In this document: one piece after another, positions 12,371-32,557 of the stretch
Position numbering within the stretch: the stretch's first letter is position 1
Layout of the letters: every line of letters begins with the position of its first letter
DNA from: an uncultured Nitrososphaerota archaeon
GTDB taxonomy: Archaea > Thermoproteota > Nitrososphaeria > Conexivisphaerales > DTJL01
Assembly (NCBI GenBank): GCA_963842885.1
Contig: CAWJIE010000004.1
Location: forward strand, 320,001-384,000
Direction of reading: 5' to 3'
DNA: 64,000 nt
Notes under the pieces: generated by a model
Database searches by the model: none
What the model was told of the DNA's origin: nothing
What the model saw: only the letters and a program-made list of their open reading frames with translations
Translations under genes and position numbers: made by a program

Positions 12371-12463
12371 GGTCAGTAGAGGAGATGTTCTATAACGGTT
12401 ACGGACAGAAAAGTCAGCCCTATCGGGCCCGTCGGGAATCGCGTCCACCTAGGTCCTCTAACA
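12371..12463 (+). repeat. Long inverted repeat, left copy (contains right-arm motif GGGAATCGCGTCCACCTAGGTCCTCTAAC)
   Basis: Aligns with the reverse complement of 21832-21915 apart from a 9-bp indel and scattered substitutions. Confidence 0.85.
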
Positions 12464-21831: not shown

Positions 21832-21915
21832 TGTTAGAGGACCTAGGTGGATGTGGTTCCCGACGGATCCGACTTTTCTGTCCGTAACCGTCATAGAATA
21901 TCTCCTTTGCTGGCC
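21832..21915 (-). repeat. Long inverted repeat, right copy
   Basis: Minus strand GGAGATATTCTATGACGGTTACGGACAGAAAAGTC...GTCGGGAACCACATCCACCTAGGTCCTCTAACA. Confidence 0.85.
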
Positions 21916-23208: not shown

Positions 23209-24639
23209 ATGGTGAGCCGTAAAGAGGATGAGGTTGCAATAGTAAGGAAGATGCTTGAGCTAGGCTACGAAGTCGAACTCGATGCGATTGGGGAGCTGCT
23301 TGATCAAGAAGGCGGACCTGAGCCAGTGCTTCGCATACTCGAAACTATAATGAAGATTAAGGCCAAGCAGCGTGGGAAGCATTTTGTTATTGGCTCTAAG
23401 GACGTTAAACCGTTTCTGCATGCCAATGCCGATTTGGGTGTATTGGAAAGAATCGTGCCGGACTTTAAGGTCATCTTCGATCCGACTGGAAGCATCAGCC
23501 CTACGGCTGACACATCTGGATATGTAGAGATGTTCAGGAGCAGGATTGAGAAGATGTCTTCCATCATACGAAACCGACCTGATTTCTTTCAAATTGAGAA
23601 ACTGAATGCCATCAAGACGCCAATTTCGGGCAAAAAGGTGTTAGCGAAAGTTGTAGGACTTGTCGTGTCAAAGAAGGTTTCTGAGGATTACACATCGTTA
23701 ACTTTGGAGGATGACAGTGGATACTTACGGTTGATGTGTACTGACGACGCGATGCGAAAGGTGGATGAGGTTTTGATTGACGAATTCGTCTTGGCGGAAG
23801 TCGAATCGTTACCTCGAGGGTATTATGCTAGGAACATCTATCATCCAGATTTGCCTGAAAAGTCTAAACGAACATCGGACGAAAGGGTTTATGCCGTTTT
23901 CGTCTCGGATCTTCATGTGGGGTCGGCGGATTTTGACGAGGCTGCCTTTCTAAAGATGATTAGTTGGCTGAATGGTGATTTCGGTGAGCTAGAAATCGTT
24001 TCTCGAGTCGGGTATTTGATTCTGAATGGAGACCTCGTTCAGAATCCGTTGGCTCGCGACGGTCATTTGAATGAGATGGGTGTGGAATCATATTACGACA
24101 TGCTCGCGGATTACTTGAGCAAAATCAAGAGACCGGTGAAGATCTTCGTCGTGCCGGGGGAAATGGATGCTACACGAATGGCGTTGCCTCAGCCTGCTAT
24201 CATCAGGAAATATGCGAGGAGGCTCTACGAAATGAAAGGCGTGTTGATGTTGGGTAACCCATCTATGATAAGCCTCAACGGCGTGATAGTCTTGCTCTAT
24301 CATGGGCAGAGCTTGGATGATGTCTTTAGACAGCTACAGTCCACCTCTTCGAGCAGGCCCTGTACTGGAATCCGTGCCTTGTTGAGAGCCAGACACATGG
24401 CTCCTACATATGGTGGATTGACTCCGTTGGCTCCTGAAAGAGAAGATCTTTTGATTGTAGATCCGGTTCCTGACATCGTACATTGTGGTCATGTTGGCAT
24501 TCCGGATGAAGATGTCTATAGAGGGACGTTGTTACTGTCTACTCCTTCCTGGGTTGTTGACATGAAATCGTCTGCTGGTAGCCAAGGTAAGGCAGCGCTG
24601 GTTGATTTATCGACCTTTGATGTTTTGTGGCGAGCATGA
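23209..24639 (+). CDS. polB: DNA polymerase D small subunit DP1, exonuclease predicted inactive
   Basis: OB fold (LEDDSG), SDLHVGS, ALPQP, NPSMI, YHG, RHMAPTYGG; but GDLVQ, PGEMD and GHVG replace GDxVD, PGNHD and GHxH. Confidence 0.88.
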   Translation: MVSRKEDEVAIVRKMLELGYEVELDAIGELLDQEGGPEPVLRILETIMKIKAKQRGKHFVIGSKDVKPFLHANADLGVLERIVPDFKVIFDPTGSISPTADTSGYVEMFRSRIEKMSSIIRNRPDFFQIEKLNAIKTPISGKKVLAKVVGLVVSKKVSEDYTSLTLEDDSGYLRLMCTDDAMRKVDEVLIDEFVLAEVESLPRGYYARNIYHPDLPEKSKRTSDERVYAVFVSDLHVGSADFDEAAFLKMISWLNGDFGELEIVSRVGYLILNGDLVQNPLARDGHLNEMGVESYYDMLADYLSKIKRPVKIFVVPGEMDATRMALPQPAIIRKYARRLYEMKGVLMLGNPSMISLNGVIVLLYHGQSLDDVFRQLQSTSSSRPCTGIRALLRARHMAPTYGGLTPLAPEREDLLIVDPVPDIVHCGHVGIPDEDVYRGTLLLSTPSWVVDMKSSAGSQGKAALVDLSTFDVLWRA

Positions 24640-24641
24640 CC

Positions 24642-25844
24642 TCAGAAAAGCGTTTTCATGGTTTCGTCGTCCTTCAGAGATGCTTCCACCACCTGTTGCG
24701 GTACCTCTAATCTAATCTTCTTTGATCTGCCCATCCTGCCTTTGCTCACCACCGGGGCAGAGACGAGGCCCAGTAGATCTAGCTCGCTGAGCAAACCGCT
24801 TACTCTCCTTTGTGTTAAAGGCTCAAGTCCGAGTTGTTTGGTGATGTCGATGTATTTTGCGTAGACATGGCCGGTGTTCTCTGCCTCTTTGAAGTATGAA
24901 ACTGTGAACAGTGTAAGCTTGCCATGAATCGGCAGTGATTGAATGGCTTCGAGCACGCGGTCTCTTTCTATGCTCTTTGAGGCCTCCTTCACGTGAGAGT
25001 CTGTGACGATTTCGGCGCCTTCTCTTTCAGCGAGCTCTCCAGCGACCCGCAGAAGGTCTACGGCGCGCCTTGCGTCTCCATGTTCTCCGGCTGCCATGCC
25101 CGCGCAAAGATTAACTGCGGCTTCGCTGACTTTCTCTTGAACGAAGGCCATCTCAATTCGTTCGTGTAGTATTGCTTTAAGTTCGTCCACGGAATAAGGA
25201 GAAAACACTATTTCCTCCTCATTGAGGCTACTGAGGACCCTAGGATCGAGGGATTCCTTGAACTTGAGGTCATTTGATATGCCAACGAGTGCGATGAATG
25301 CGTTGTTAGTTAGGTTCTCGTTGGCCCTGGTGAATTCATAGAGTAAGTTGTCGCCAGAAGATTTCACCATGAAGTCGATTTCATCTAATATGAATATCGT
25401 CTTCAGAGAATCTTCTCTTATCTTGGTGGTGATTCTGTTGAAGGCTTCGCTGAGAGACAACCCGGTAAATGGAAGTATAACTCCAAGACTGGAAGCTAGT
25501 TCCGAGAGGATTCTGTATTCTGTCGAGGCGATACGTGTGTTAACATATGCTGTTCGGACGTTTGTATCAATGGTCTTGCTCTTTTCCGCCATGCGTTTTA
25601 GGACATATTTCGTGACGACGGTCTTACCCGTGCCTGTCTTGCCATAGATGAGAAGGCTAGATGGTTTGTGACCTGTTAAAGCAGGGGATAGAATTTGAGC
25701 GACGCCTTTAATTTGAGCATCTCTGAAGTGAATCTGATTTGGGATGAACTCGTTTCTAAGGACGTTCCTATTGATGAATAGTGTTTTACCGCTTATCGCT
25801 CTTTCGAAGATATCATCTAATGAATCGGAAGGTTGGTTTGTCAA
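24642..25844 (-). CDS. cdc6: Orc1/Cdc6 replication initiator
   Basis: YGKTGTGKT, ILDEID, LDPRVLSSL, GDARRAVDLLR, wHTH; start moved to TTG 25844 because the ORF-track start lies in an ORB. Confidence 0.95.
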   Translation of the reverse strand: MTNQPSDSLDDIFERAISGKTLFINRNVLRNEFIPNQIHFRDAQIKGVAQILSPALTGHKPSSLLIYGKTGTGKTVVTKYVLKRMAEKSKTIDTNVRTAYVNTRIASTEYRILSELASSLGVILPFTGLSLSEAFNRITTKIREDSLKTIFILDEIDFMVKSSGDNLLYEFTRANENLTNNAFIALVGISNDLKFKESLDPRVLSSLNEEEIVFSPYSVDELKAILHERIEMAFVQEKVSEAAVNLCAGMAAGEHGDARRAVDLLRVAGELAEREGAEIVTDSHVKEASKSIERDRVLEAIQSLPIHGKLTLFTVSYFKEAENTGHVYAKYIDITKQLGLEPLTQRRVSGLLSELDLLGLVSAPVVSKGRMGRSKKIRLEVPQQVVEASLKDDETMKTLF

Positions 25845-26384
25845 GGGCCCCCGCCCCAATATTTCCACTGGAAAATATATAACCTGATGGTTTGTTGAGA
25901 GTTAAAAGAAAACTATACCGCTTTTGTTTACTCTAATGAATACATATACTATCATGTCAATACTAATTGGCTAACGACCTAGACCAAATTCATATAGCAT
26001 CATCCAACGTTATACTGATTACCACGAAGAAATCTTCGACAATCTCCACTGGCAATCCATGGGTGCCCCCGTCCAGCCACACCACGGACATCCGATCCCT
26101 TGGCAATCTGTTAACTTTTAAACATCATTCGACCAACAGAGCCGATTCCCTGACCCCTTTGTTTCCACTGAACTCATTCCACACCACAGATTTGTTAACA
26201 TGCTCAAGTCGACCCCAGTGCGTCCACTGGGGCTCATAGAACTAACTAATCTTCTTGTTCTGCCAAGCGACAAGTTAACTTCGGTAAACAACCATCAAAA
26301 ACACCTGCCGTCTCATAACGAATCGAACAAGATTCACAAACCGGTTAACAGGTCATCACTGTTAACTGTTATATTCGCTAAGCA
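25845..26384. other. Replication origin (oriC)
   Basis: ORBs on the minus strand: TTCCAGTGGAAATATTGGGG (~25854-25873) and GTTCAGTGGAAACAAAGGGG (~26154-26173); partial TCCACTGG at ~26045 and ~26223; AT-rich tract 25870-25970; upstream of cdc6. Confidence 0.85.
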
Positions 26385-26840
26385 TTGACCTTACTCTACT
26401 CCTTGGGAAGACAGGTAAAAGTCCAATTCGAGGGATCCGACGGAGAACGATACACCATCAAGCTAGAGGGAACTCTTTCCCGAGACAAAGTGATGCGCAT
26501 AATGGATATGTATGAACTATTGGCCCAGGAAGAGAGCTCCAAACCCGAAGCAAACGACGAGACATTATACGGCAGAATCCAAGGCCTTATCAGCGAGAAG
26601 TTCACTCTCAAACAATTCACATCAGATCAAATACGAGATACATTCGAAGACATTTACAACCAACCAATCAAGCTAGCTGAAGTAAGTACATATCTTTCAA
26701 GGATGAACAATCAGGGCTTTGTAGCTAGAAGGAAACGTAGCAGAAAATGGCTGTACTCGCTCGTTCCTCCTGCGAAGATTCAGACGCCACAAATAATACC
26801 CAGACAGGGAACTCGGTTTACTCAGATAATAGACCGTTGA
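26385..26840 (+). CDS. Winged-helix protein, divergent from cdc6
   Basis: FTSDQIRDTFEDIYNQPIKLAEVSTYLSRM...KWLY. Confidence 0.75.
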   Translation: MTLLYSLGRQVKVQFEGSDGERYTIKLEGTLSRDKVMRIMDMYELLAQEESSKPEANDETLYGRIQGLISEKFTLKQFTSDQIRDTFEDIYNQPIKLAEVSTYLSRMNNQGFVARRKRSRKWLYSLVPPAKIQTPQIIPRQGTRFTQIIDR

Positions 26841-26879
26841 GAAACCCTCCAACGACAAAAAAGGCATTAAATGTAGATA

Positions 26880-27518
26880 CTAGAGACCGGGCAGGGGGCT
26901 ACCTGTGACCATATCACGTCCGGTATCACTCAACACATAAGAATAGGGCTTCTTCGAGGCGTCCCTGACCACAAATCCCCTATCCGCCAGAGACTTCATT
27001 ATCCTAGCAGCATGTTCCCTGCTACTCCCCAAAACAGCTTTGATCTCAGATGCGGTCATTCTTCGACCTACAAGACTTCTTAACACTACAACCTCAACCT
27101 TGGAAGATATTTTCAAGTCGCTCCGATTAACCAGTTTACTACCTTCCTTCCTGGCCCTTTCCATCGAAGAAACGGGCTCTAATCGCTGACGAAACACTGC
27201 GACGTCCGATTCTCGAGTCGCCGAGGTCAGATTGGTGACAGCGGGTGGAAAAGGAGTAAGAGCTTGGAAAGCCGACCACCCGGTTCTTAGCAATCGATCC
27301 TCCAAGACATCAAGTTTCACCTGTACATCAGCGAGTCTTCTGTCCTGTAGCGAGGCCCTCGCGTTCAACTCTTTCATCATACTTGCTATCACATCAGAGC
27401 TATCGACATAAGCAGCCGAAGCTCGCCGTAGCACAGGTAGATAGCGTATCAGAACAATGAATGAAGAGATACTGAGCAATGAAACCCCAAATGCAATGTA
27501 GACTAACACATCAACCAT
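26880..27518 (-). CDS. TM + coiled-coil + wHTH protein
   Basis: N-terminal TM helix; SREHAARIMKSLADRGFVVRD...PYSYVLSDTG. Confidence 0.7.
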   Translation of the reverse strand: MVDVLVYIAFGVSLLSISSFIVLIRYLPVLRRASAAYVDSSDVIASMMKELNARASLQDRRLADVQVKLDVLEDRLLRTGWSAFQALTPFPPAVTNLTSATRESDVAVFRQRLEPVSSMERARKEGSKLVNRSDLKISSKVEVVVLRSLVGRRMTASEIKAVLGSSREHAARIMKSLADRGFVVRDASKKPYSYVLSDTGRDMVTGSPLPGL

Positions 27519-27565
27519 ATGATGACAACATGTGATTTCTGAGGTGTGATATAAGTCTTGTCAGG

Positions 27566-27970
27566 TCACTTGTGTGATGCCCTATGCAACACAGCACTCA
27601 CCAACGCCAGAAACCGGTTTGACTCATCATCAGTCAATTCGCGGACTGCAGACTGCTCAAGCATGGACGCAACCCTCGGGATAGAGCCAATTACGCTTGG
27701 CGATACCAGGTCCAAGCTCAGGGCTAGAATCAAGGTAGCTATCGATTCAGAGATGACGCCTTCTGCTTGAGAAGCCGACCTCTCCATGGAACCCAGTGAA
27801 GTCTGCTTATCTCTCATTGACAGAACTTCCTTCAACTTCAAACGGTTCTGCAAAGCATACCTTCTTACGAGAAGCGCATCAAGTTGGGCTCTCTTGAAAT
27901 GCGTCCGGTCGAAGAGAGCTCTGAACGTCTCTCGTCGTAACACATCTTCTAACACGGTTAAGTTATACAA
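27566..27970 (-). CDS. Hypothetical protein
   Basis: 134-aa helical ORF, same strand as the downstream gene. Confidence 0.55.
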   Translation of the reverse strand: MYNLTVLEDVLRRETFRALFDRTHFKRAQLDALLVRRYALQNRLKLKEVLSMRDKQTSLGSMERSASQAEGVISESIATLILALSLDLVSPSVIGSIPRVASMLEQSAVRELTDDESNRFLALVSAVLHRASHK

Positions 27971-28092
27971 ATTTGTATATTTACGTATTCTGAGATGGGC
28001 TGAGTCGCTTGGTCTCAGAGAGCCGAAGCAAACATGATACGTTTATAACACAACCAAATCCCTACTCAATAACTAAGTCACTTGGTGAGATA

Positions 28093-28329
28093 ATGGGGAG
28101 ACGTCGAAGGAAGGTATACAAACCGGTCAGAAAAACCCTGCCGAAAATATTCAATTGTCCTAGGTGTGGCGCTCCATCCGTGAAGGTTATAAAGAAATCC
28201 GAAGAATTTCATGTGATATGTGGATCTTGTGGCTTGGCATACGATTCTGCCCCGCAAAGGCCGCGCGAAGTGATAGACATCTTCAACGACTTTGTCGACG
28301 CATTTTACAAAGGCAAGATTGGGGCCTAA
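28093..28329 (+). CDS. elf1: Transcription elongation factor Elf1
   Basis: MGRRRRK...LPKIFNCPRC...CGSCG...IDIFNDFVD. Confidence 0.88.
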   Translation: MGRRRRKVYKPVRKTLPKIFNCPRCGAPSVKVIKKSEEFHVICGSCGLAYDSAPQRPREVIDIFNDFVDAFYKGKIGA

Positions 28330-28332
28330 ACT

Positions 28333-29091
28333 TTGGAGCCAAAGGTCGACTCATACATTCTCAATGAGCTCAAGACCAAGAGCGCCCTGGTCTTCGCTTT
28401 ATTGGATTCTGAGAATGTAAGCCCAGAACAATCGGCATCGATAGCCAAGAAGATCGCTAGGGCAGGAGCCGACGCCATTCTGGTCGGCGGTTCAACAGCA
28501 GTCGACCAACTAGCCCTTGACATGGTTGTCAAACGAGTTAAGCATGTTGTGACTATTCCTGTGATATTATTCCCAGGAAATGTGACCGGCGTCTCTCCAA
28601 ATGCCGACGCAATACTTTTTTCATCACTTCTCAATTCTAGTGACCCATATTTCATAATTGGTGCACAAGCTCTCGGCTCGTTATTAGTCAAGAAGTATCA
28701 CATCGAAGCACTACCTACAGGATACATCATTGCTGGGGAAGGGGGTGCCGCCGGTTTCGTCGGCAGAATTCACTCATTCCCTCAGAACAAACCGGAGCTT
28801 GTTGCTCTCTATGCGCTTGCCGCTCAGTACCTAGGAATGAGATATGTGTACCTTGAAGCGGGATCGGGCGCTTCCTCAGTTATACCAGCTGGAACAATTG
28901 CAAGGGTGCGAAAACTATACGAAGGCCTTCTCTTGGTTGGAGGAGGCATAAGAGACCAGAGAACGGCCCTTGCAGCCATCGAAGCTGGGGCCGACATAAT
29001 AGTAGTTGGTAATCTGATTGAAACACAAGGTTTCGAAGAAGTTCTACGGCAAATATCTTTGGTCGCACACCATAAGCGATCTAAGAGATAG
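28333..29091 (+). CDS. pcrB: Geranylgeranylglyceryl phosphate synthase
   Basis: DAILVGGS, ILFPG, SLLNS, YLEAGSGA, VGGGIR. Confidence 0.93.
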   Translation: MEPKVDSYILNELKTKSALVFALLDSENVSPEQSASIAKKIARAGADAILVGGSTAVDQLALDMVVKRVKHVVTIPVILFPGNVTGVSPNADAILFSSLLNSSDPYFIIGAQALGSLLVKKYHIEALPTGYIIAGEGGAAGFVGRIHSFPQNKPELVALYALAAQYLGMRYVYLEAGSGASSVIPAGTIARVRKLYEGLLLVGGGIRDQRTALAAIEAGADIIVVGNLIETQGFEEVLRQISLVAHHKRSKR

Positions 29092-29097
29092 AGCGTC

Positions 29098-32088
29098 TTG
29101 GGACTTAATCGAGAGAAGCCAAACCTTGACGTAATTCAAAGAACCCTTAAACAACTTGAAGGCATGCCGTTGCAGGCATACTATGAAGGCATTTCCGATT
29201 CCTATCAGAGAGCATATCGATACACCATAACCGTAAAGGAGAAAAGCAACGACCCAGATCCTTGGCCACAATCACAAGAAGTATGTGACAAAGCAGATCG
29301 ACTTGAGGCACTCACACAAATCCACGGAATCGACAAACGACTCCGGGAGTATGAATCAAGCTCCTCAGTCGTCGAGACCGCTCTCAAGCTGTCTGAAGAC
29401 ATAGCGCTCGGCCACTTCGGTTTCTTCGAAAAAGAACAAACCTTGAATTTAGCCATAAAAGCCTCAGTTGCAGTTGTGACATCTTATGTGAGCGCTCTCC
29501 CTGTAGAGGACATCACAAAGGTCGTCATCAAGAAGAACGGTGATGGCACGCTTTATCCAGCCGTCTTCTTCGGTCAGATATCAAACATCATCTCTCCGCT
29601 TCAAGCTTCGTTTCTCCTCCTTATCGTCGACAAAATACGAATCATGGTCGGCTTGGATAAATATCACGTTAACTCCACGGGCGAGGACGAGATTGCCCGG
29701 TTCTTAGAAGAAGTTGGTGCGTATGAAAGGGAAGTAGGTCCCTTTGAATCGCACATCAACGAGAGCCACCTGCGTCTGGTCCTGCAAAACTTGCCTATCG
29801 AAGTTGATGGCTATGGAACCGAGGATTTTGAAGTCTTGATTAACAGAGGACTCAGTAGGATCAGAGACAACAGACTCAGAGGCGGCGCCCTGCATGTTCT
29901 AATCGAGGGAATCATCGGCAACTCAGCTCGTCTTTACTCTCTGTCAAAGGAACTGCAGCTACAGGAATGGACTTGGTTGACCGGCCTGGATAACGCCGGG
30001 AAGCCGAAAGGTCCTGGAGACCTCCAATCTTACATTCTCAACGCGAAGCCTGGCAAACCTGTTTTGTCGTTACCAGACAGGCAAGGGAGTTTTCGACTGC
30101 GCTACGGCAGGGCTCAAAATACCGGGTATGGTTGCTTCGGATTCCACCCTGCTGTCCTTGAACTCCTCGATTTCCCTATAACCACGGGAACGCAAATCAA
30201 AGTTAGCATCGCTAACCGGACCGGGTCTGTAGCCGTAGTCGACTCTCTGGAGCCCCCAATCATACGGCTTAACAATGGTGACACATGCAGGGTTGATAGC
30301 ACCGATCAGGCCAGGGCTTTGAAGGAACAAGTGGAATCCATCATTCATCTAGGGGATGTACTAGTATCACCCAACGAATTCTCCAGTTCGGGCAGCAAGC
30401 TGGAGCCATCAGGCTACGTCGAGGAGTGGTGGATTTCGGACCTTCACAGGAGTCAAGAAGATAGACACCTCGACTTGCAACAGCTTTCAGCCCTCACAAC
30501 CCTCGACATCAACAGGCTTCAGATGATGTTGACTAATCCTCTCTCCGTCAGACCGACCCTTTCCGAGTCAATACAACTTTGTGATGTGATAGGAATTCCC
30601 CTTCACCCTCGCTACTTGTACTACTGGGACGCACTCACCATAAAAGACGTATTTACGCTGAGAGAGAACATTGTAGACTACAAGGATGTGAGACCAGACA
30701 CCCGCTCTCTCACATTCATATACTCCCAACAAACCAAACGAATCCTCGACGCAGCCGGGATTCCGCACAAACTCTCAGCCTCTTTGCTAACTGTCTCAGG
30801 AGATGACGCGAGAACAACATATCTGACCTTGGCTCCGGACAAAACGATTCCTCTCGGGGCCACGTATTCTGATACTCTGACTCTTCTCAAGTTCCTATGT
30901 GGCTTCGAACTAAAAAAGAAAGCATCGACACTTGTTGGTGTAGCAATGAGGCGGGTTGAGATAGCTAGCGAACGAAAAATGAGACCGCCTGTGCACGTGT
31001 TATTTCCCGTTGGAACGAAGGCCGGACTTTCTCGAGATCTTCTGCAATTCTCGCGCTCACCGTCTAAAGTAGAAATCCGCATGAGAGTATGTCCTTCCTG
31101 TAACTCACAATCGCCATATGAATCGTGTCCGTTCTGCGAATCGCGGACTTCACAGCTGTATTATTGCACAACTTGCAGAAAGGAGAGCCGTGATGCAACG
31201 TGTCCAGACTGTGGAAACACGACATCTGATTCTGTGACTGCCGTCCCCCGGATGCAAGATCTCCTAAGGGCCGCTTCGACTAGTCTAAGCCTCCAACCTT
31301 ATCCTCCCCTTAAGGGCGTGATCAAACTCTCTAACCGTTTGCTGATGCCCGAACGACTAGAGAAAGGCATTCTTAGACAAAGGCATAACCTTACCGGCTT
31401 CAAAGACGGAACAACCAGATACGACACGGTCAATGCGCCACTGACTCATTTCAAGCCCTCTCAGTTTCACATGAACATCAAGACTCTTCATGACTTGGGC
31501 TATACCATAGATAGATACGGCCAACCCCTTGAGTCAGAAGAGCAAATCCTAGAACTCAAGCCGCAGGACGTGATTCTCCCTGAGGAAAGCGGCGATTATT
31601 TCAAAAGGCTGGCTGCATACTTAGACGACCTTCTGTCCCGTTTCTCCAAGGTAGAAACCTACTACAACGTTCAGAATCAAGAAGACCTGCTCGGCACTCT
31701 CGTGGTTGGGATATCTCCCAAGGCCTCGATTGGCGTCATAGGCAGAATCATAGGCTTCACAAGTGCGCGAATTTGTTATGCTCATCCAATGTGGCATGCA
31801 GCTAAGCATCGCGATTGTGGAGGTGACGTCGATTCACTGACTTTGCTCCTAGACGTGATGTTAAACTACTCTCCGAAGCTTTGTCCAAATCAGCTAGGGG
31901 GACTACTCGACGTCCCCTTCATGATCGAGCCAATCGTCTTACCCCCAATTATGTCCAAAGGAACCTCATTCGACGCATTAGATTCATACACCCAAGAATT
32001 CTATAACAAAGTCAGCGCCAGACCGCGGCTGCAGTCATTCGAAGAACCTATTTCTAACCCACAGAGTGCAGGAAGAAACCCACCCTAG
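29098..32088 (+). CDS. polC: DNA polymerase D large subunit DP2 (main part), polymerase predicted inactive
   Basis: FRLRYGR, IHLGDVLV, YVEEWW, PLHPRY, ERLEKGILR, FKDGTTRYD, NAPLTHFKP, GRIIGF; catalytic motif reads HAAKHRDCGGDVD. Confidence 0.9.
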   Translation: MGLNREKPNLDVIQRTLKQLEGMPLQAYYEGISDSYQRAYRYTITVKEKSNDPDPWPQSQEVCDKADRLEALTQIHGIDKRLREYESSSSVVETALKLSEDIALGHFGFFEKEQTLNLAIKASVAVVTSYVSALPVEDITKVVIKKNGDGTLYPAVFFGQISNIISPLQASFLLLIVDKIRIMVGLDKYHVNSTGEDEIARFLEEVGAYEREVGPFESHINESHLRLVLQNLPIEVDGYGTEDFEVLINRGLSRIRDNRLRGGALHVLIEGIIGNSARLYSLSKELQLQEWTWLTGLDNAGKPKGPGDLQSYILNAKPGKPVLSLPDRQGSFRLRYGRAQNTGYGCFGFHPAVLELLDFPITTGTQIKVSIANRTGSVAVVDSLEPPIIRLNNGDTCRVDSTDQARALKEQVESIIHLGDVLVSPNEFSSSGSKLEPSGYVEEWWISDLHRSQEDRHLDLQQLSALTTLDINRLQMMLTNPLSVRPTLSESIQLCDVIGIPLHPRYLYYWDALTIKDVFTLRENIVDYKDVRPDTRSLTFIYSQQTKRILDAAGIPHKLSASLLTVSGDDARTTYLTLAPDKTIPLGATYSDTLTLLKFLCGFELKKKASTLVGVAMRRVEIASERKMRPPVHVLFPVGTKAGLSRDLLQFSRSPSKVEIRMRVCPSCNSQSPYESCPFCESRTSQLYYCTTCRKESRDATCPDCGNTTSDSVTAVPRMQDLLRAASTSLSLQPYPPLKGVIKLSNRLLMPERLEKGILRQRHNLTGFKDGTTRYDTVNAPLTHFKPSQFHMNIKTLHDLGYTIDRYGQPLESEEQILELKPQDVILPEESGDYFKRLAAYLDDLLSRFSKVETYYNVQNQEDLLGTLVVGISPKASIGVIGRIIGFTSARICYAHPMWHAAKHRDCGGDVDSLTLLLDVMLNYSPKLCPNQLGGLLDVPFMIEPIVLPPIMSKGTSFDALDSYTQEFYNKVSARPRLQSFEEPISNPQSAGRNPP

Positions 32089-32557
32089 ACCAATATATGA
32101 CTATACACATTGGTCATCGATAGTCGTCGCTTCGCAGCCGCGGTCACAATACGCCACTCCTGGACCCATGCCCGACAAAGTTAGCAAGCAGATAATTATC
32201 GCAAACAAAATCAGGGCCGTCGACGTCGACGGCCTCGTCTCTTCTCTGTTAAATAACTACCTAGTCAAAGAGATAGTTCACAGCCTAGATGCCTATTCCA
32301 CTCAGAAGTTCCGTTGTAAGGGATGTGGTGAGACGTATCGCCGCCCGCCTCTAAAGGGAACATGTTTGACCTGTGGTCGGGAACTCCTTCCAACCGTAAC
32401 GTTAGCCGCGGTTGAGAAATACACGCTATTAGCTAGCGAACTGACTAAATCACACGAAATAACCCAATCAATCAAAGACAAGGTAACGTTGGCACTAGAG
32501 AACATCCAGCTCCTCTCCGAATCGAAGAAACAGACTTCTATCTCAGATTATGTATGA
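32066..32557 (+). CDS. polC: DP2 C-terminal part (+1 frame relative to the main part)
   Basis: KIRAVD, QKFRCKGC...YRRPPL...CLTCG, VEKY, PIP-box-like KQTSISDY. Confidence 0.85.
   Translation: MQEETHPRPIYDYTHWSSIVVASQPRSQYATPGPMPDKVSKQIIIANKIRAVDVDGLVSSLLNNYLVKEIVHSLDAYSTQKFRCKGCGETYRRPPLKGTCLTCGRELLPTVTLAAVEKYTLLASELTKSHEITQSIKDKVTLALENIQLLSESKKQTSISDYV

Follow-up and report, generated by a model that had tools for sequence, protein, structure and literature searches.

Both DNA polymerase D subunits are conserved without their synthesis and proofreading residues in a non-ammonia-oxidising Nitrososphaerota lineage

DNA polymerase D (PolD) is taken to be an essential replicase wherever it is present. 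In an uncultured, non-ammonia-oxidising Nitrososphaerota archaeon, both PolD subunits are well conserved and the residues for synthesis and proofreading are gone, which raises the question of why such a pair is kept. An earlier note, made from the sequence of this locus, had proposed a pseudo-polymerase acting as a replisome scaffold. We assessed this reading by a combination of alignment, inspection of public contigs, rate analysis and comparison across the order.

PolD genes beside a probable origin

The window, which is the whole 64,000-nucleotide stretch of DNA analysed, encodes the small subunit DP1 at 23209-24639 (+ strand, 476 aa), with an N-terminal helical domain, an OB fold and a degenerate phosphodiesterase domain. 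DP1 matches the Pfam families DNA_pol_E_B (PF04042, 3e-20) and Metallophos (PF00149), with a weak match for the OB fold, and aligns with P. abyssi DP1 across residues 103-451, covering the OB and calcineurin-like phosphodiesterase folds. It does not group with the eukaryotic B-subunits: its best matches are archaeal DP1 (E 6e-68, the value for P. abyssi DP1) as opposed to Pol delta subunit 2 (2e-08), and its partner is DP2. The large subunit, DP2, lies at 29098-32557 (+) and occupies two frames in the window, a first frame of 996 aa (29098-32088, +) and a C-terminal part of 163 aa in the next frame (32066-32557); without an extra base at 32070 it would read as about 1152 aa in one frame. The N-terminal, central and catalytic domains were matched in Pfam (PolC_DP2_N and the central and cat families; PF03833 1e-55, PF24844 3e-90, PF24846 1e-84), and the comparison with P. 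abyssi DP2 (E 2e-169) showed the expected order of N-terminal, central, catalytic and C-terminal domains. The gene at 28333-29091, which fell within the span originally noted, encodes a GGGP synthase (PcrB) according to Pfam and is separate from DP2.

Between the two subunit genes lies an Orc1/Cdc6 initiator gene (24642-25868, - strand; Pfam Cdc6_lid, Cdc6_C and AAA). The adjoining 516-bp spacer contains all three exact matches of TCCACTGG in the whole window. These matches fall in a probable origin spacer at 25861-26232, where an AT-rich stretch accompanies four dyad-like TCCACTG(G) boxes. The description of the locus as "beside oriC" is thus plausible. In two complete genomes, G010 and G038, DP1 and DP2 likewise lie on either side of the origin and Orc1/Cdc6, and this location is the ancestral position of the replicase.

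Catalytic motifs of the two subunits

All of the motif positions given in the earlier note were right when rechecked. The DP2 a-motif, HAAKHRDCGGDVD (31795-31833, +), corresponds to the canonical thaumarchaeal H[SA]AKRRDCDGDxD. Counted from the alignment with the P. abyssi chains, Gly908 (codon GGA, 31819-31821) occupies the place of the catalytic Asp D956, so that the motif reads DCGGD in place of [ND]xDGD with its two invariant catalytic Asp (P. abyssi D956 and D958). The reported Asp-to-Gly change is therefore borne out by this alignment, as it is by the public contigs and genus members described below. One of the two Arg of the motif (R960) is also changed, and across the genus the first and third Asp are retained together with a further Asp two residues on. 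The b-motif, GTQIKVSIANR (30187-30219, +; canonical GTQxKxxxPGK), has Ala for the invariant Pro and Arg for the invariant Lys (9N K398), a residue that is Lys in 145/145 canonical DP2 and Arg or His in the genus. In the s-motif, SPKAS (31714-31728, +; canonical APHTS), the steric-gate His is replaced by Lys. The remaining losses are likewise concentrated in conserved motifs: GQISNIISP (29572-29598, +) does stand, as claimed, where AGPIRSAGGT is nearly invariant, and RRVEIA (30949-30966, +) replaces the near-invariant GRPEKA.

The expected effect of these changes can be judged from published mutagenesis. In Thermococcus 9N PolD (PMC7708050), D964A and D966A, equivalent to P. abyssi D956 and D958, abolish synthesis, with D964A at the very position of the present Gly doing so wholly, and K398A nearly abolishes it, the b-motif Lys holding the primer 3' end. 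The change equivalent to D964A also abolishes synthesis in P. horikoshii PolD (PMC4996933). Because DP2 has lost the a-motif Asp together with the b-motif Lys, the steric-gate His and one of the two Arg of the a-motif, we infer that it polymerises very poorly or not at all.

Some weak DP2 activity is nevertheless conceivable, because the thaumarchaeal a-motif has three Asp (DxDGD), of which the genus keeps the first and the third, in addition to the Asp two residues on. The enzyme might accordingly still be a polymerase, weak or altered, using the remaining acidic residues of D-C-G-G-D-x-D and, without the steric-gate His, perhaps taking other substrates, as in repair or primer handling. Favouring this, the first and third Asp are present in 5/6 genus members, with Glu in the sixth; the third Asp of thaumarchaeal PolD is absent from the 9N enzyme, in which N962A, at the position of the thaumarchaeal extra Asp, leaves partial activity; and DNA synthesis persists in H931A, which alters the 9N steric gate (both from PMC7708050). 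The catalytic domain is, in addition, strongly constrained (omega 0.08-0.12). Opposed to it are the 9N and P. horikoshii results at the equivalent position, the accompanying changes of the b-motif Lys, R960 and the PHT motif, the change of the second Asp as well in one genus member, the sister genera that lack any catalytic Asp and still have the gene, and the loss of the DP1 proton donor at the base of the order. We regard a surviving polymerase as improbable.

In DP1, motif I (SDLHVG, 23905-23922, +) is intact by alignment with P. abyssi and comparison with DP1 of the order, and motif IV is retained. Motif II reads GDLVQ (24028-24042, +; canonical GDxVD), in which the metal-binding Asp is kept and the second Asp is Gln. 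Motif III reads PGEMD (24154-24168, +; canonical PGNHD), with Glu for Asn and Met for the proton-donor His (P. abyssi H451), and motif V reads GHVG (24487-24498, +; canonical GHxH), in which the second His is lost. DP1 hence lacks the full set of five motifs that includes GNH. In the alignment with P. abyssi DP1, the Glu-Met pair falls on Asn and on the residue that is Ala in H451A constructs, and GHVG falls on GHVH, confirming the proposed loss of phosphoesterase ligands. The H451A substitution renders DP1 exonuclease-deficient (PMC6355029, PMC4996933). Without its proton-donor His and two of its ligands, one Asn and one His, DP1 is probably unable to proofread.

Shared substitutions under purifying selection

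An alternative explanation would be that the genes are decaying pseudogenes, or that sequencing errors account for both the frame shift and the substitutions. The window DP2 is indeed in two frames, and the assembly holds at least one other split gene, encoding PRPP synthetase. We examined Logan contigs of three public runs (X1, X2 and X3, from two studies, one of them possibly the source sample). All three cover the GGA codon with no difference, and all three lack one base at 32070, within the overlap of the two frames (32066-32088, +). In relatives, DP2 is an unbroken ORF of 1152-1180 aa. Since the frame shift is absent from both, it is probably an assembly error, and a real split of DP2 was rejected on these grounds and on the strain SNPs in 31500-32557, which are 5/5 synonymous. 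The earlier note did not mention the split of DP2 in the window. Together with a dN/dS of about 0.1 and changes common to species only 57-66% identical, these observations make decay or artefact highly improbable.

A 78-base segment beginning beside the Gly codon (31820-31897, +) recurs at 95% identity 39 kb upstream (G000:C4:312744-312821), which suggested that an integrated element had used this site for attachment. The upstream copy sits in the spacer between the PRPP synthetase gene and a ThiF-like gene. Such an element was rejected as the cause of the substitution because there is no integrase among the genes surrounding the upstream copy, the stretch separating the two copies consists of core genes in an order conserved in relatives, and the Gly is common to distant species.

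To measure selection, we used the closer metagenome loci L146 and L147, as the GTDB genus members were unsuited to dN/dS, with saturated synonymous sites (pS 0.65-0.9). The NG86 dN/dS of DP2 was 0.094 against L146 (dS 0.73) and 0.113 against L147, compared with 0.054 and 0.038, respectively, for SHMT and 0.139 for orf597. By domain, all values were 0.08-0.22, with 0.08-0.12 in the catalytic domain. The root-to-tip distance of DP2 in the genus, about 1.07 compared with 0.6-0.85 in canonical lineages, indicates a slightly raised rate. Strain-specific decay, for which a ratio near 1 was expected, is not borne out. These results show purifying selection on the genes and establish the substitutions as genuine, old and shared.

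The Gly at D956 occurs in 6/6 genus-level DP2 examined (G000, L006, L007, L008, L146 and L147; 57-87% identity), with Glu at D958 additionally in L147, and the a-motif loop is almost invariant within the genus. In an alignment of 157 DP2 sequences, 145 have D-G-D, and the 12 without it come from this genus, from relatives in its order and, in one case, from another Nitrososphaeria MAG. The order is Conexivisphaerales according to submitters' labels, including those of the submitter of the genus's closest named relative; the genus itself, judged from the public runs carrying it, is a mesophilic peat and freshwater lineage, and there were no RNA runs among those listed. The GNH motif is lost in 26/26 DP1 of the order examined, whereas 4/4 outgroup DP1 keep all five motifs, and the order forms one clade in the DP1 tree (SH-aLRT 97); the proton donor was lost at the base of the order.

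Beyond the genus, DP2 is progressively reduced. Sister genera retain the gene with no catalytic Asp left, and in other families the full-length, point-inactivated form of the genus gives way to relics of about 700-845 aa. Of the 145 columns conserved to 97% or more among 145 canonical DP2, 103-107 are kept in the five genus sequences that are full length, 94/140 in the 996-aa part in the window, 60-70 in sister genera and 58-60 in the 845-aa forms. Protein queries found neither DP1 nor DP2 in G003, G008, G009, G012 and G037 (88, 85, 86, 68 and 91% complete, respectively), nor did PF04042 find DP1 in these incomplete genomes. In one family of the order no PolD pair was found. A profile of the order's DP1 matched 275 of 401 Thermoproteota genomes; families without a strong match gave hits only at E 1e-4 to 1e-7, which may be other phosphoesterases. 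The earlier proposal of an intermediate in a PolD-to-PolB switch is consistent with this graded decay.

Retained contacts and a likely non-catalytic role

The elements through which PolD contacts other proteins are preserved. Two Zn fingers of DP2, CPSC..CPFC and CTTC..CPDC (31090-31212, +), keep all eight Cys, and by alignment and complex model the Zn-III module of the C-terminal domain (CTD) carries YRRPP (32315-32377, +), a DP1-binding motif of the KxRRxP type. DP2 ends, by alignment, in the PIP-like peptide KKQTSISDYV (32525-32554, +). All Cys of the three Zn-binding modules are kept in the window, and Zn-III, YRRPP and a KKQxx[LI]x[DE][FY] C-terminus were found in 18/18 DP2 C-termini compared, relics included. 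Pfam and alignment likewise agree with the noted persistence of the Zn fingers, OB fold, N-terminal helical domain and PIP-like C-terminus. The DP1 N-domain is retained in families f1 and f4 and mostly lost in family f3. A model of DP1(100-476) with DP2 CTD(40-163) gave an ipSAE of 0.74, compared with 0.00 for the best control, a mark reached by 58/80 solved complexes and 2/110 mismatched pairs; three runs shared at least 80% of contacts, which included CTD 92-98 (RRPPLKG), with a partner pLDDT of at least 74. As a like complex has been solved, this pass indicates likeness only. In studied systems, the cPIP of PolD binds PCNA and primase, DP1N is reported to bind Gins51C, and PolD is reported to stimulate CMG and to connect primase to GINS via the DP2 C-terminal motif.

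GINS (C4:57727-58020), PCNA (C4:99619-99900) and PriS (C4:101120-101635) are encoded in the genome. A search for family B polymerases revealed an intact PolB on contig C5 (DIEV, SLYPS and a YGD/TDS motif interrupted by inteins, of which there are two). A second PolB, on C3, has HGIVDS for YxDTDS and is itself an example of an inactivated family B polymerase. Neither has a DP2-like Cys-rich C-terminal domain, with no Cys in the last 100 residues. A search for other PolD copies gave only one DP2 match in this 87%-complete genome.

Taken together, we think it likely that the heterodimer has neither catalytic activity and is kept by selection as a non-catalytic part or adaptor of the replisome. 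As judged from conservation, DP1 and DP2 would still pair through the Zn-III C-terminal domain of DP2, the DP1 N-domain would dock on GINS/CMG, and the DP2 C-terminal peptide would bind PCNA, primase or both; the dead pair would thus tether clamp and primase to the helicase, and the intact two-intein PolB would make the DNA. The erosion across the order, stepwise from full-length point-inactivated DP2 through loss of the catalytic Asp to relics, with one family in which PolD was not found, would fit a hand-over from PolD to PolB, with the scaffold outliving the enzyme. The scaffold role proposed at the outset is therefore supported, as an interpretation, by the shared changes, the low dN/dS, the kept contact elements and the intact PolB.

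Several observations weigh against an adaptor. Constraint is no weaker in the catalytic domain than elsewhere in DP2, and a pure scaffold might relax there, as it does in sister genera; the DP2 rate in the genus is only slightly raised; the residual Asp leave weak activity conceivable. There is no known route linking PolB to DP1, because neither PolB has the Cys-rich domain, and a search of the 87%-complete genome with PF04104 did not find PriL. Since family f3 lost most of the DP1 N-domain, the GINS link is not the whole explanation across the order. The pair could instead owe its retention to some task other than replicating the chromosome, for example in repair or recombination, in regulating the origin, or in a structural association that has nothing to do with CMG, primase and PCNA. 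Purifying selection indicates some function and not which one, and the f3 truncation and the position of the genes around the origin and Orc1/Cdc6, in G010 and G038 too, are compatible with such a role. That same position, however, is the ancestral one of the replicase, and the most widely kept parts, the DP1-binding domain and the C-terminal PCNA/primase peptide, are fork-assembly elements in studied PolDs; we consider a role outside replication unlikely.

The replisome adaptor can be taken further, tentatively. Living members of the order may represent successive stages of the path along which PolD was abandoned in Crenarchaeota, and possibly in the eukaryotic stem: catalysis and proofreading would go first, the module of DP1, DP2 C-terminal domain and PIP would stay indispensable because nothing else bridges primase, clamp and CMG, and the protein would shrink to this module, then be lost or captured by PolB. 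On this doubtful extension, the pseudo-PolD of the genus would be essential without making DNA and would be the archaeal equivalent of the inactive half of Pol epsilon with Dpb2, which is the essential part of that enzyme.

The genus provides a natural separation-of-function allele, full length, slowly evolving and constrained, without synthesis or proofreading residues. Together with the other members of the order, it opens the non-catalytic functions of PolD to testing, and the parts it points to as indispensable would be the Zn fingers, the domain that binds DP1 and the C-terminal PCNA/primase peptide. One member of the order, Conexivisphaera calida, is in culture according to published work, making cell-based tests possible. 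The findings bear on why Crenarchaeota lost PolD and on how eukaryotes paired PolB with dead DP1-like subunits. For annotation, "DNA polymerase II" genes in this clade should not be taken as active polymerases, and the relics of about 700 aa, at or below Pfam thresholds, are likely left unnamed.

Compared with canonical PolD (P. abyssi 5IJL, 5IHE, 6HMS and 6T8H; Thermococcus 9N; T. kodakarensis), the pair shares the domain order, Zn fingers, C-terminal domain, KxRRxP-type motif, C-terminal PIP and cdc6 adjacency, but DP2 lacks D956, the b-motif Lys, the PHT gate, GPIRSAGGT and GRPEKA, and DP1 lacks the motif III Asn-His and the last motif V His. Inactivated archaeal family B polymerases, reportedly described by Rogozin and colleagues in 2008, are replicative homologues conserved after loss of catalytic residues; PolD, in contrast, is of a different fold and family. 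The B-subunits of eukaryotic polymerases are homologous to DP1. Their phosphodiesterase domain is dead, and they connect polymerases with CMG and bind a Zn-containing domain at the C-terminus of the catalytic subunit (PMC7544198). In eukaryotes that domain is fused to an active PolB, whereas here it sits on a dead two-barrel DP2 and PolB is separate and without it. The same paper describes other archaeal routes for giving up PolD catalysis, in which DP1 or PolB takes over: the Aenigmarchaeota B6 PolB with a DP2-type C-terminal domain, and Nitrosocaldus without DP2. Unlike these, in which DP2 is replaced or absent, the present lineage retains it whole.

A literature search for earlier descriptions of inactivated PolD in this lineage returned one paper, Kazlauskas et al. 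2020 (NAR 48:10142, PMC7544198), which reports, for two or three MAGs of the order, that DP1 is inactive and that an active DP2 is missing. Its group of "GCA_002499005-like" Nitrososphaeria comprises two MAGs (UBA160 and UBA164) and one protein (NAY82623), from which conclusions were called premature; UBA160 and UBA164 belong to a family placed in Conexivisphaerales, an order shared with the window genus according to submitters' labels and papers. Like that group, the window genome shows inactivation of DP1, lacks an active DP2 and encodes no PolB ending in a Cys-rich domain. The main text on that group does not describe a full-length, point-inactivated DP2, selection measures, the order-wide gradient or the conserved contact motifs. 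Dead PolD is thus a kind already known, to which the genus adds the least-decayed stage.

Catalytic residues at the PolD locus

The window encodes both subunits of DNA polymerase D (PolD), the small subunit DP1 (23209-24639, plus strand) and the large subunit DP2, which starts at 29098 on the plus strand and is read as a 996-aa frame to 32088 followed by a 163-aa frame (32066-32557). Between them lie Orc1/Cdc6 (24642-25868, minus strand), an adjoining spacer of 516 bp, three small ORFs, Elf1 (28009-28329) and GGGP synthase (28333-29091). Exact matches to TCCACTGG number three in the 64-kb window, and all of them lie in the spacer beside cdc6, adjoined by an AT-rich stretch; a replication origin is plausible there. 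The G+C content around DP1, cdc6, DP2 and SHMT (20000-42000) is 0.46-0.53, compared to 0.57-0.60 for the contigs, with the low-GC zone reaching upstream to about C4:284000 on the same contig; it rises up to 0.65 at 58-60 kb of the window. A short repeat (44-93 bases, 80-93% identity) was seen at four genome sites, namely window positions 21832-21915 and 12371-12463 (minus strand), G000:C9:51-94 and C5:17150-17196.

The earlier note had described a PolD apparently dead in both subunits and proposed that it is kept as a scaffold. Its motifs and coordinates all proved correct when checked against the window, and alignment with the characterised P. abyssi subunits bore out the catalytic substitutions. 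In DP1, SDLHVG (motif I) and YHG (motif IV) are intact, whereas motif II reads GDLVQ, motif III reads PGEMD instead of the wild-type PGNHD, and motif V reads GHVG instead of GHVH. The DP1 residue H451 is described as the proton donor, and H451A as the standard exonuclease-deficient variant (PMC6355029, PMC4996933). In DP2, the HAAKRRNCDGDED is HAAKHRDCGGDVD when aligned to the P. abyssi protein, and Gly908 (GGA, 31819-31821) corresponds to D956, as counted along the printed alignment. D956 and D958 are reported as the two invariant catalytic Asp of P. abyssi PolD (PMC4996933), and either D964A or D966A abolished synthesis by the Thermococcus 9N enzyme (PMC7708050).

To place these changes, the 996-aa part of DP2 was aligned with 156 DP2 sequences, drawn from 166 fetched loci after exclusion of 10 whose longest ORF was below 1000 aa. 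The canonical D-G-D of the a-motif is present in 145 of the 157 proteins; the 12 others are six from this genus, three sister genera of its family, two 845-aa forms from another family, and one further Nitrososphaeria MAG (L039). The a-motif core of the six genus members is GGD, except for GGE in L147. Of 145 columns with at least 97% conservation across the 145 canonical proteins, 103-107 are kept in the five full-length genus DP2, and in the window's part 94 of the 140 that it covers; the counts are 60-70 for the sister genera, 58-60 for the 845-aa forms and 40 for L039. The losses in the genus are concentrated in five motifs and exceed those spotted in the earlier note: KRR[DN]CDGD became K[HY]R[DN]CGG[DE] (a-motif), PGK became A/L-x-R/H (b-motif, with a Lys present in 145/145 canonical DP2), PHT became PKA, PEA or PKT (s-motif), AGPIRSAGGT became GQISxIxSP, and GRPEKA became RRVEIA. 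For the 9N enzyme it is reported that K398A extended less than 15% of primers, by one nucleotide, that R960A and R961A reduced extension, and that the His of PHT, H931, acts as the steric gate (PMC7708050).

By analogy with this mutagenesis in other species, the DP1-DP2 pair would have lost its activity, and the best-supported reading of the comparative data is that it is a pseudo-enzyme. The main rival holds that PolD of this genus still has some polymerase activity, residual or altered; in its favour are an a-motif loop unusually well kept in the genus and the third Asp that thaumarchaeal PolD typically has. Against it stand the D-to-E change in the L147 a-motif and the fact that the steric gate, the DP1 centre, the b-motif Lys and one Arg of the a-motif have been lost in parallel.

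Sequence error, decay and selection

Logan contigs from three public runs span the GGA codon and show no difference there. Two of the runs are peat metagenomes from a single study and the third is a freshwater metagenome from a second study, one of the three possibly being the source sample. The Gly is common to the six genus members. The contigs of the same runs lack the base at 32070, without which DP2 forms a single continuous frame of about 1152 aa. Because these contigs lack the base, the DP2 of relatives is unbroken (1152-1180 aa), and a ribose-phosphate pyrophosphokinase (PRPP synthetase) gene is also split, an assembly error is the most likely cause of the DP2 frame shift. The PRPP synthetase gene, just upstream of the window (G000:C4:311447-312341; L145:7447-8341, minus strand), is divided into two overlapping ORFs, an N-domain of 104 aa and a catalytic part of 209 aa, and looks like a second single-base indel of the assembly.

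All five single-base differences between the window and the run contigs (31500-32557) are synonymous. By the Nei-Gojobori method, the dN/dS of DP2 is 0.094 against L146 (87% identical; dS 0.73) and 0.113 against L147 (78%), the closest metagenome relatives. The corresponding values are 0.054 and 0.038 for the SHMT gene next door, and 0.139 for a neighbouring 597-aa ORF. Individual DP2 domains give 0.08-0.22, with the catalytic domain inside this range. Synonymous sites are saturated in comparisons with genus members farther away, where the DP2 dN of 0.24-0.35 falls among the values of ordinary neighbours. A dN/dS of about 0.1 is far from neutral decay and shows purifying selection on the gene; sequencing error or decay as the cause of the substitutions is ruled out by the run contigs, the synonymous differences and the dN/dS.

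A 78-base DP2 stretch (31820-31897), which begins at the second base of the Gly908 codon, has a copy of 95% identity 39 kb upstream (G000:C4:312744-312821; L145:8744-8821), in the spacer that separates PRPP synthetase from a ThiF-like gene. The repeat is real, since public contigs break at both its ends, carrying the other flank.

Decay of PolD across the order

The order Conexivisphaerales was sampled by 36 species-level genomes, the source genome among them, of which 31 yielded a DP2-like gene and 29 a DP1 gene. In family f2, neither subunit was matched in either of the two genomes available (86% and 68% complete). The DP1 alignment comprised 30 loci, 26 from the order and, as an outgroup, four from elsewhere in the class (other orders), with three matches without a locus left out. 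Motif III lacks Asn-His in all 26 (PGE[MTCSLN]D, PGD.D, PGH.D, PGY.D or PGP.D), whereas all five motifs are present in each outgroup sequence. In the DP1 tree the order is one clade (SH-aLRT 97), in which the genus's own family resolves as (genus g1, (g4, (g2, g3))), beside families f3 and f4. Because the motif is lost throughout a single clade with intact outgroups, the loss of the exonuclease centre maps, on these sequences, to the stem of the order.

The decay of DP2, followed in an alignment of 19 of the 30 DP2 loci, is stepwise. In this genus the protein is full length with one catalytic Asp missing; in the sister genera (1071-1109 aa) CRGRSD, CSGVAD or YENNNT replace CDGDxD; in genus g11 of f4 it is 845 aa; and in the rest of f4 and in f3 it is 687-724 aa, where the Pfam matches, at or below threshold, are limited to a fragment of the catalytic domain and the end of the central domain that bears the Zn fingers. 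In a tree built on 32 of the 157 rows, root-to-tip distances are about 1.07 for the genus, 0.6-0.85 for canonical lineages and 2.0-2.6 for the sister genera, the DP2 of the genus having evolved only slightly faster than canonical forms. The closest public matches are labelled 'Conexivisphaerales archaeon', 'Nitrososphaerales archaeon' and 'Nitrososphaerota archaeon', and farther, canonical ones belong to Nitrososphaeraceae, Nitrosopumilaceae and Nitrosotalea; the metagenomes with this DNA are from peat and freshwater.

L039 (JARVKA010000006.1, 'Nitrososphaeria archaeon isolate JZ1_bin.63') is a further, more extreme case. Its a-motif is replaced by HETSEAIVDNTKP, most Zn-finger Cys are gone, and it groups apart from this family on a very long branch (4.7). 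A phylum scan also found three genomes of one Thermoproteota genus (G127:C4:89003-90475, G087:C1:88640-90112 and G079:C30:93841-95316) whose DP1 match, 505 aa and otherwise full length, contains one in-frame TAG; the codon could be recoded or read through, or the three genomes could share a break.

Retained contacts, PolB and known systems

All eight Cys of the two central DP2 Zn fingers and the GRIIGF strand are kept, as are the C-terminal Zn-III with YRRPP and the C-terminal peptide KKQxx[LI]x[DE][FY]; these elements are common to the genus, the sister genera, the 845-aa and roughly 700-aa relics, and the canonical outgroups. The N-terminal helical domain of DP1 persists in families f1 and f4 and is largely gone in f3. 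In studied PolD, the Zn-III KxRRxP region is reported to bind DP1 (PMC6355029), the C-terminal PIP to bind PCNA and primase (PMC7101311) and to be required for the connection of primase to GINS (PMC8096248), and DP1N to bind Gins51C, with PolD stimulating the CMG helicase (PMC9023282). When DP1(100-476) was modelled in complex with the C-terminal 124 residues of DP2, the score was 0.74 (best control 0.00), a mark that 58 of 80 solved complexes reached, as did 2 of 110 mismatched pairs. The result indicates likeness to known complexes and not proof of binding, since like complexes have already been solved. Three runs agree on at least 80% of contacts, which include RRPPLKG, with partner pLDDT of at least 74. 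GINS, PCNA and PriS are encoded in the genome (a bin of 2.03 Mb in 11 contigs); PriL was not found by a Pfam-model search of this 87%-complete bin.

The polymerase inventory of the same genome comprises one DP2, no second copy having been found in the 87%-complete bin, and two PolB genes, as in most genomes of the order; neither PolB carries a Cys-rich C-terminal domain. The PolB on contig C5 (G000:C5:348276-353402; L226:390-5402) is a 1709-aa open frame with exonuclease DIEV, motif A SLYPS and motif C YGD/TDS, interrupted by two inteins, one in motif B with a LAGLIDADG domain and the other between YGD and TDS; it looks fully competent. The PolB on C3 (G000:C3:483891-486140; L002:418-2667; about 750 aa) carries DFSALYPN as its motif A and matches the exonuclease domain only in part. 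Its motif C reads HGIVDS in place of the YIDTDG of P. abyssi PolB and therefore lacks one Asp; this is possibly another inactivated or specialised polymerase.

The pseudo-polymerase interpretation of the earlier note is supported by comparative evidence. According to this model, the pair would have given up both synthesis and proofreading and been retained for fork assembly, with the DP2 C-terminus holding primase and PCNA, the DP1 N-domain tying them to CMG, and PolB carrying out synthesis.

An inactivated PolD is already known as a kind because of the group of Kazlauskas et al. (UBA160, UBA164 and one more protein), for which they report an inactivated DP1, the lack of an active DP2 and no PolB with a DP2-like C-terminal domain, while calling conclusions premature (PMC7544198). 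The family UBA164 is assigned to Conexivisphaerales (bioRxiv 10.1101/2025.10.01.679748) and is placed with Conexivisphaera calida in a thermophilic non-ammonia-oxidising clade (PMC10640624). The words polymerase and PolD were not found in the text of the genomic papers checked on these lineages, and a full-text literature search returned no description besides PMC7544198, whose supplements may show more of DP2 than its text. In comparison, what is new here is a mesophilic genus in the least-decayed state, the measure of selection and the additional lost motifs, the order-wide series over all 36 genomes, and the finding that the DP1-binding domain and the PCNA/primase peptide outlast all else, which is of solid interest for archaeal replication and early eukaryotic replication.
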